A DNA stretch of 581 bases, from the NCBI RefSeq assembly GCF_003334385.1, contig NZ_QOWN01000163.1, one strand, 5' to 3'. The stretch is from Escherichia coli (GTDB lineage Bacteria > Pseudomonadota > Gammaproteobacteria > Enterobacterales > Enterobacteriaceae). Below the pieces are notes generated by a model. It worked only from the letters and a program-made list of their open reading frames with translations, did not search any database and was not told the origin of the DNA. The position numbers and the translations under genes were made by a program. Each line of letters opens with the position of its first letter. Positions within the stretch are counted from its first letter, which is position 1. Positions 1-581 of this stretch are shown here, in pieces.

Positions 1-581
1 CTGACTGTTGTCAATCTCTGCCCACAGCGCCTCTGCCAGATGCGTTTTTCCTATCTTTTCCCGGAAAAGTTCCAGATAGCCCGCAGCATCATTGCTCGCC
101 CGTCCACTGGCTTCCACAAAAGCAGATTTACCCACCAGGTTGACGCTGCGCACATAAAACCAGAAATCCTTTCCGGGCTTAATGTGCGGACCGGAGACAC
201 TCCACTGACTGCCGGTCCCCAGATAACGGGCAGAGGTTTCCACCTGTGCGGCGTCTGCAATTTTTGCCTCCGAAAACCAGAACTCAAACTGCACCGTCGG
301 GTCATAAATGGTCAGTTTCGGGACTGCCGTTATCTGAAAATACCCCGGCGTCAGTTCAATGCTGGCCGGTGCCGCCGGTGCGTTAATCCGGAACGTGGTG
401 GTGGCGGGTTCGCCCTGCTGGCCATAGCTGTTAATCGCCCTGACCGTCAGGGTGTATTCCCCGGGAGGCAGGCCACTGAAACGGTGCTCCGTATCGGCAG
501 TGATGGCGGTGGTCAGCAGGCGGCTGTTCTCACCGCTTCCACTGGTCAGGCGCAGACTGAAGCGCACGCCCTTCACCACCC
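1..581 (-). CDS. J: Internal fragment (both ends outside the window) of a lambdoid phage/prophage tail-tip host-specificity protein, lambda gpJ-like (tip attachment / central tail fibre protein). Codons run on the minus strand from 579 to 1.
   Basis: Seen in sequence: the minus-strand frame 579..1 has 193 codons with no stop, and uses Leu CTG and GC-ending codons typical of enterobacterial genes. From memory of lambda gpJ: the translation shares stretches such as [21 protein letters not shown] and GRAS-DDA-GYL. Two FN3-type signatures are present ([22 protein letters not shown] and [22 protein letters not shown]). The track missed this frame, presumably because it has no start or stop inside the window. 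Confidence 0.85.
109..360 (-). other. Second, complete FN3-like domain module (residues about 74-157 of the window translation)
   Basis: Starts after the APAAPAS linker with [12 protein letters not shown]. It has a Trp-containing segment (FEFWFSE) and ends with the FN3-type signature [21 protein letters not shown]. Boundaries are approximate. Confidence 0.5.
382..581 (-). other. FN3-like domain module, N-terminal part truncated by the window edge (residues 1-66 of the window translation)
   Basis: Shows the FN3 F-G strand signature, with conserved Tyr, Val, Ala, Asn, Gly and Pro spaced as in [22 protein letters not shown], followed by TTTFRI. It is followed by an Ala/Pro-rich linker, APAAPAS. 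Boundaries are approximate. Confidence 0.5.

Follow-up and report, generated by a model that had tools for sequence, protein, structure and literature searches.

The gpJ protein of phage lambda begins with hub domains, which are followed by two FNIIIs, an alpha-helical shaft, a beta-prism central fibre, and a receptor-binding domain, and the authors of the lambda tail structure named the two consecutive domains FNIII-1 and FNIII-2 (PMC11101478). The mechanism in which these domains take part is known from cryo-EM of both closed and LamB-bound open lambda tails (PMC11101478, PMC10721106). In the closed state, three FNIII-1/FNIII-2 strings form a closed distal cone that seals the tail tube, and a three-helix bundle below clamps these strings together (PMC11101478, PMC10721106). 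Once LamB is bound, twisting of the fibre is accompanied by a flip of the helix bundle, part of which changes to beta structure. The three FNIII strings come apart, take up positions at right angles to the hub, and leave the tube open (PMC11101478).

Lambda gpJ and T5 pb3 were the only tail tip proteins in a published comparison to carry two consecutive FNIIIs after four hub domains (PMC10721106). The FNIII pair of pb3, a baseplate hub protein that we set beside J by its published description, moves sideways on opening as does that of lambda (PMC11101478). In contrast, the three FNIII strings of pb3 are reported to be splayed apart without forming a closed cone (PMC10721106), and T5 has its fibre and receptor-binding functions on proteins of their own. 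Thus, a sealing role is not universal among relatives.

We analysed a stretch of E. coli DNA of 581 bases, hereafter called the window, whose minus-strand translation is collinear with residues 646-836 of lambda gpJ (8IYK, 8K35, 8XCG, 8XCI, 8XCJ, 9E7M). The two share the same Pfam families, an AP-rich linker at lambda residue 713, and the predicted fold. Identity to lambda gpJ is about 62% overall, with values of 55% for FNIII-1 (34/62 residues), 59% for the C-terminal half of FNIII-2, and 43% for the helix. The nearest relatives of the window also keep the lambda gene neighbourhood. Taken as a whole, the window is very probably an internal fragment of the gene for a lambdoid tail tip attachment (host specificity) protein J, in which FN3 strings would seal the tail tube until the receptor is engaged.

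Gene identity and domain content

Six-frame translation of the window revealed a stop-free reading frame of 193 codons in frame 3 of the minus strand, which is open at both ends and includes neither a start nor a stop codon. When all PDB chains were searched with phmmer, residues 1-190 of the translation matched lambda gpJ (8iyk_J, residues 646-836) with an E-value of 2.5e-72 and one single-residue gap. The NCBIfam model lambda_TipJ (NF049904) matched at profile positions 645-837 with an E-value of 2.5e-97, and its curated whole-protein cut-off of 1950 bits is beyond the reach of any fragment. Matches to PHROG families for the central tail fiber protein J had E-values from 1e-64 to 1e-116 and include PHROG 31 ('central tail fiber J') as well as PHROGs 10903 and 2148. 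Both J-specific Ig-like Pfam domains are present in the correct order, Ig_J and then Ig_J_second. The gpJ match runs collinearly across FNIII-1, FNIII-2, and the shaft, as expected of a J protein.

The gene and its domain content can be read directly from these matches. The fragment encodes the last two thirds of FNIII-1, a Pro/Ala linker, a whole FNIII-2 domain, and ~30 residues from the beginning of the shaft (Table 1). For annotation, it can be named a segment of a lambdoid J gene that carries FNIII-1, FNIII-2, and the shaft start.

Frame 1 of the plus strand (1..579) is also free of stops over 193 codons. With typical E. coli codon usage, such an open frame has a probability of roughly 0.008, which might be taken to mean that the plus frame is a real gene and that the J-like frame is coincidental. 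However, the plus frame lies antisense to the J frame and in register with it, and is stop-free merely because the sense strand here contains no TTA, CTA, or TCA codons. The same stop-poor antisense frame extends for 705 codons in lambda J and is interrupted within the equivalent region of a close relative, the J gene of E. coli SW070917 (L004). Moreover, the minus-strand homology found with phmmer against the PDB, with Pfam, and with NF049904 is overwhelming, whereas an Rfam scan of the window (E <= 1) returned no match and a promoter scan of the window returned none. A plus-strand gene is vanishingly unlikely, and we rejected this candidate as a by-product of codon usage.

Few other features of the DNA stand out. 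The ORF contains two weak terminator-like hairpins, versus 0.5 expected. The only repeat found in a search of the window is a 13-nt direct repeat (156..168 and 273..285; 12/13 identical), which encodes DFWF in strand F and EFWF in strand C of FNIII-2. This repeat most likely reflects similar hydrophobic strand sequences and not a DNA element.

Table 1. Features mapped on the 581-base window. Positions are those of the window, and residues (aa) are numbered along the minus-strand translation.
Feature	Position	Strand	Residues (aa)	Basis or counterpart
Open reading frame	3..579	-		lambda gpJ 646-~839; E. coli SCU-104 J (1176 aa), residues 645-837
FNIII-1, C-terminal two thirds, strands C to G	382..579	-	1-66	Pfam and AF2 model
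FNIII-1 F strand, FG loop, and G strand start (18 residues)	403..456	-	42-59	model strands 40-49 and 59-65
Inter-domain linker APAAPAS	361..381	-	67-73	lambda 713-719, APAAPSR
FNIII-2, complete, seven strands and one short helix	94..360	-	about 74-162	Pfam and AF2
FNIII-2 F strand, FG loop, and G strand (19 residues)	109..165	-	139-157	alignment and profile
Alpha-helical shaft start	3..93	-	about 163-193	aligned to lambda 809-836; predicted helical
Recombination junction interval relative to the J genes of SW070917 (L004) and SCU-104 (L002)	323..359	-		exact two-allele join; first FNIII-2 strands
Junction at the end of FNIII-1 strand G			62-66	P0013 type
Junction in the first FNIII-2 strands			74-87	P0010, P0071/P0074
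Junction inside FNIII-2, conserved 13-residue stretch			92-105	P0081
Junction at the FNIII-2/helix border			~158-175	several

The Pfam matches define the extent of each domain. Ig_J (PF24421) aligns with aa 1-68 at model positions 37-104 of 104 (E 1.6e-23). Because this model is matched only from position 37, FNIII-1 is cut by the edge of the window. Its strands A and B fall past position 581, outside the window, and the whole domain corresponds to residues 609-712 of the SCU-104 protein. Ig_J_second (PF24489) aligns with aa 70-172 at model positions 2-104 of 105 (E 2e-39) and is complete. The linker coincides with the beginning of gpJ713, a construct used for crystallisation or cryo-EM, such that residue 1 of the 8xcj chain equals aa 67 of our translation. 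The shaft start aligns with the upper AHS helix of lambda, which comprises residues 809-840 (PMC11101478). It is this part of lambda gpJ that makes up the three-helix bundle beneath FNIII-2.

The sequence-only reading had described two tandem FN3-like modules at 109-581, each ending in an F-G strand signature and separated by an APAAPAS linker. Both signatures were recovered, and the linker lies exactly where it had been placed. These features are real and well positioned, but that layout gave plus-strand coordinates with no mention of minus-strand coding, module 1 is incomplete, and the ORF runs on to position 3. Positions 3..108, below its lower bound of 109, code for the last residues of FNIII-2 and the beginning of a helix. 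The beginning of the alpha-helical shaft had thus been absent from that description.

FN3 fold of the two modules

Conservation and profile analyses were based on an alignment of 32 J-family fragments that extends down to 27% identity. Across these homologues, Y42, V46, and G53 of the FNIII-1 F-G region are invariant or nearly so, as are the FNIII-2 F-G residues R144, G150, and S152 (invariant) and N147 and F154 (nearly invariant). Linker residues P68 and P71 are likewise invariant in the alignment. The conservation of the linker prolines and of the F-G cores of both domains is consistent with a conserved structural role.

When compared with the PDB, the profile built from the 32 fragments matched titin (E 1.7e-14), gp130 (E 2.2e-4), and the FN3-domain protein 7jgt (E 5.4e-4). 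It also reached the FN3 domains of Robo2/3 over the full length of module 2 and the designed protein FN3con, as well as fibronectin with weaker E-values. The F-G region of solved FN3 domains is matched by the profile in 7jgt_A, titin 3lpw, and Dscam. The J modules are therefore related at the level of sequence profiles to bona fide FN3 domains.

In contrast, the canonical Pfam fn3 model (PF00041) did not reach significance, with an E-value of 0.093 on the window, where it covered aa 21-59 only, and of 0.065 on a full-length homologue. Among the 32 family members, PF00041 gave E <= 0.001 in 1 and E <= 0.1 in 12, and the J modules do not qualify as members of PF00041. Pfam places them in separate families of their own and not in fn3. 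The weak Pfam fn3 and Y_Y_Y matches fall on the F-G segment of FNIII-1. Canonical FN3 domains, such as those of fibronectin, titin, neogenin, and NCAM, share with the J modules the seven-strand beta-sandwich and the F-G signature Y-x-[LV]-x-V-x-[AS]-x-N-x-x-G, but differ in that sequence identity is 10-18% and their PF00041 model stays below significance on the window.

When the alignment was shallow, with 20 close homologues, AlphaFold2 (AF2) produced no usable structure (pLDDT 52.6), whereas the prediction from the diverse 32-sequence alignment was confident, with a mean pLDDT of 89.9 and a pTM of 0.70. The resulting model contains four strands in the partial module 1 (residues 6-13, 20-27, 40-49, and 59-65) and seven strands (73-79, 82-88, 97-103, 118-123, 126-129, 138-146, and 155-161; pLDDT 91-96) plus a short helix in module 2. 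A long helix starts at residue 165, and DSSP assigns shaft-start helices to residues 165-177 and 180-192 of the model.

A Foldseek search of the PDB with this model ranked lambda tail-tip structures at the top (E 1.7e-23), with 8xcj_F superposing at an rmsd of 1.6 A over 119 columns in the FNIII-2/helix part. Next were tandem FN3 pairs from fibronectin (5n47, 2gee), neogenin, NCAM, contactins, and L1CAM, with E-values of about 1e-6 and a probability of 1.00. These alignments cover 170-190 columns and include both modules, at sequence identities of 10-18%. The model thus has the superposable A-B-E / C-C'-F-G arrangement of an FN3 beta-sandwich, with module 1 lacking its first strands at the end of the window.

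On the basis of gpJ homology, the family profile, and the AF2 model, both modules are FN3-type beta-sandwiches, and the fold proposed by the sequence-only reading is borne out. An Ig-like match and a beta-sandwich were both clearly found.

Module 1 and module 2 showed no similarity to each other by BLASTP, and so the pair is not the product of a recent internal duplication. Separately, giant metagenome proteins of 1,500-6,600 aa contain 10-50 tandem repeats that match, at 30-37% identity, the segment at aa ~25-85, which includes the FNIII-1 F-G region, the linker, and the first part of FNIII-2. Examples include P0163, which has 50 repeats, P0167, P0171, P0172, and similar proteins. Thus, the FNIII-1 type found in J is part of a widespread repeat family that extends beyond phage tails.

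The FN3 pair and its probable role in tail-tube closure

The role established for lambda is a structural and mechanical one, and homology suggests how this part of J might seal and open the tail in the source phage. In the closed state, a three-helix bundle beneath the cone would hold the three FN3 strings together. Once the receptor-binding domain engages an outer-membrane receptor, the central fibre would twist and the helix bundle would unfold or flip. The FN3 strings would then part and swing sideways, leaving the tube open for the exit of DNA. If the analogy holds, the function of the domain pair would be better described as that of a tail-tube closing cone and opening element of J than as that of an accessory adhesin.

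A different role, as accessory surface-binding or spacer domains, had been proposed from the sequence. In its strongest form, this explanation holds that the FN3 modules are decoration that serves for weak carbohydrate binding or spacing and is dispensable for the core tail mechanism. A carbohydrate-adhesion hypothesis for phage Ig-like domains was reportedly put forward by Fraser et al. in 2006. Such domains are ubiquitous in phage tails and may help adhesion via weak carbohydrate binding (PMC10721106), and the J family profile also matches repetitive, adhesin-like giant proteins such as P0163. However, the FNIII domains of lambda sit on the tail axis as a closed cone and move in the opening transition (PMC11101478, PMC10721106), and adhesion is discussed for them as just a possibility (PMC10721106). 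In addition, the FN3 pair is present in 32/32 aligned homologues, even those at 27% identity, with the linker prolines kept, and is therefore more constrained than typical decoration domains. We consider it unlikely that the modules are dispensable decoration and favour the closing cone, although a closing-cone role and an adhesion role are compatible with each other.

Relatives and mosaic structure of the J gene

Close relatives of the window are common. The best match, at 99.0% DNA identity, is to gpJ genes of prophages within complete genomes of E. coli, followed by the J gene of Escherichia phage PhiR12_2 (98.1%) and those of many Stx2a-converting phages (96.7%). These prophage, Stx-converting, and PhiR12-type sequences represent the same gene, and their 96.7-99.0% identity extends across the whole window. 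Of 5,426 complete E. coli genomes, 2,020 contain related sequence, and the median copy number is two per genome. The order tape measure, M, L, K, I, J is found both in PhiR12_2 and in the SCU-104 prophage, which are relatives at 98-99% DNA identity. The SCU-104 J protein has the Pfam architecture FNIII-A, Phage-tail_3, Ig_J (609-712), Ig_J_second (714-816), and Phage_Tail_Tip. The alleles of the FNIII-1, C-terminal FNIII-2, and helix blocks carried by the window are of a non-lambda type that is common among Stx-converting phages and E. coli prophages.

Two database records of these relatives deserve comment. The PhiR12_2 J protein (L001) is annotated as 954 aa long and is followed by a separate 'tail fiber protein' ORF (about 6900..7600). 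Its gene differs from that of the 1176-aa SCU-104 protein by one 1-nt indel close to codon 946, after which the receptor-binding C-terminus resumes in a different frame. This split is a frameshift or a sequencing error in the record. The second record (P0009), from E. coli O145:NM, is a 172-aa fragment that is 99% identical to the window and carries the name 'homoserine acetyltransferase, partial'. It is evidently a mis-annotated J fragment.

In a set of 120 homologues from the database, two clearly separate alleles, one of the window type and one of the lambda type, were seen both for FNIII-1 and for the C-terminal half of FNIII-2, and all four combinations exist. We mapped the junctions between these alleles site by site along the window residues (Table 1). 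The sequence-only reading had suggested that the modules are natural breakpoints for domain shuffling between phages. The junctions support this in part. Several do lie at the linker or first FNIII-2 strand, but others fall inside FNIII-2 and at the border between FNIII-2 and the helix. Junctions thus recur in the linker region without being confined to it, and the exchanged blocks differ from whole FN3 domains. The junctions are located in conserved stretches, a pattern that ordinary homologous recombination would give. A literature search on mosaicism of J genes yielded no work specific to J of E. coli.

The window itself has the form of a mosaic. Nucleotides 1-259 of its reverse complement, on the FNIII-1/linker side, are 100% identical to J of SW070917, and nucleotides 223-581, from the first FNIII-2 strand onward, are 100% identical to J of SCU-104. 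From its best match among complete genomes it differs only by one patch of 14 nt inside the linker, in which all six differences cluster (plus-strand positions 360..373), and it is thus a further mosaic of known blocks. The junction interval and this patch together span 323..373, or minus-strand codons 69-86.

This composition raises the question of whether the fragment is decayed or chimeric, either as a remnant of a defective prophage or as an assembly chimera of two co-resident J genes, and was non-functional in its source. Neither complete E. coli genomes nor phage records contain a 100% match to the window, and an exact search of IMG/VR for the 76-nt mosaic junction found it absent. The window is also an exact join of two database alleles that reside together in both NZ_CM129862.1 and NZ_LR134079.1, and many public J fragments sit on contigs of ~1 kb at assembly breaks. 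However, the reading frame is unbroken over 193/193 codons, and the differences between the window and its relatives are all in frame and are synonymous or conservative. Natural mosaics of the same J blocks are abundant in independent records. We therefore think it quite improbable that the fragment was non-functional in its source. The junction in the window may have arisen by natural gene conversion or as an assembly chimera, and we favour neither origin. A chimera would encode the same two domains, and identification of the fragment as part of J is unaffected.

A more speculative proposal is that the linker and first FNIII-2 strand form a favoured, selected joint at which hub-proximal FNIII-1 alleles are re-paired with the fibre-proximal FNIII-2, shaft, and receptor-binding alleles of lambdoid prophages. 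We regard this as unlikely. If it were true, the two FNIII-1 alleles, which share 55% identity, would be functionally different closing and triggering cones and not neutral variants, and the window would record one exchange between co-resident prophages.

The FN3 pair in J is an already known feature of lambda gpJ and of its very common homologues in E. coli prophages, and its domain structure and role have been published for lambda. The main value of the present analysis is the correct annotation of the fragment. Of some slight further use is the clear case that it provides of J alleles being exchanged in mosaic fashion at an inter-domain linker, which is relevant to engineering or tracing host-range modules in lambdoid and Stx phages.
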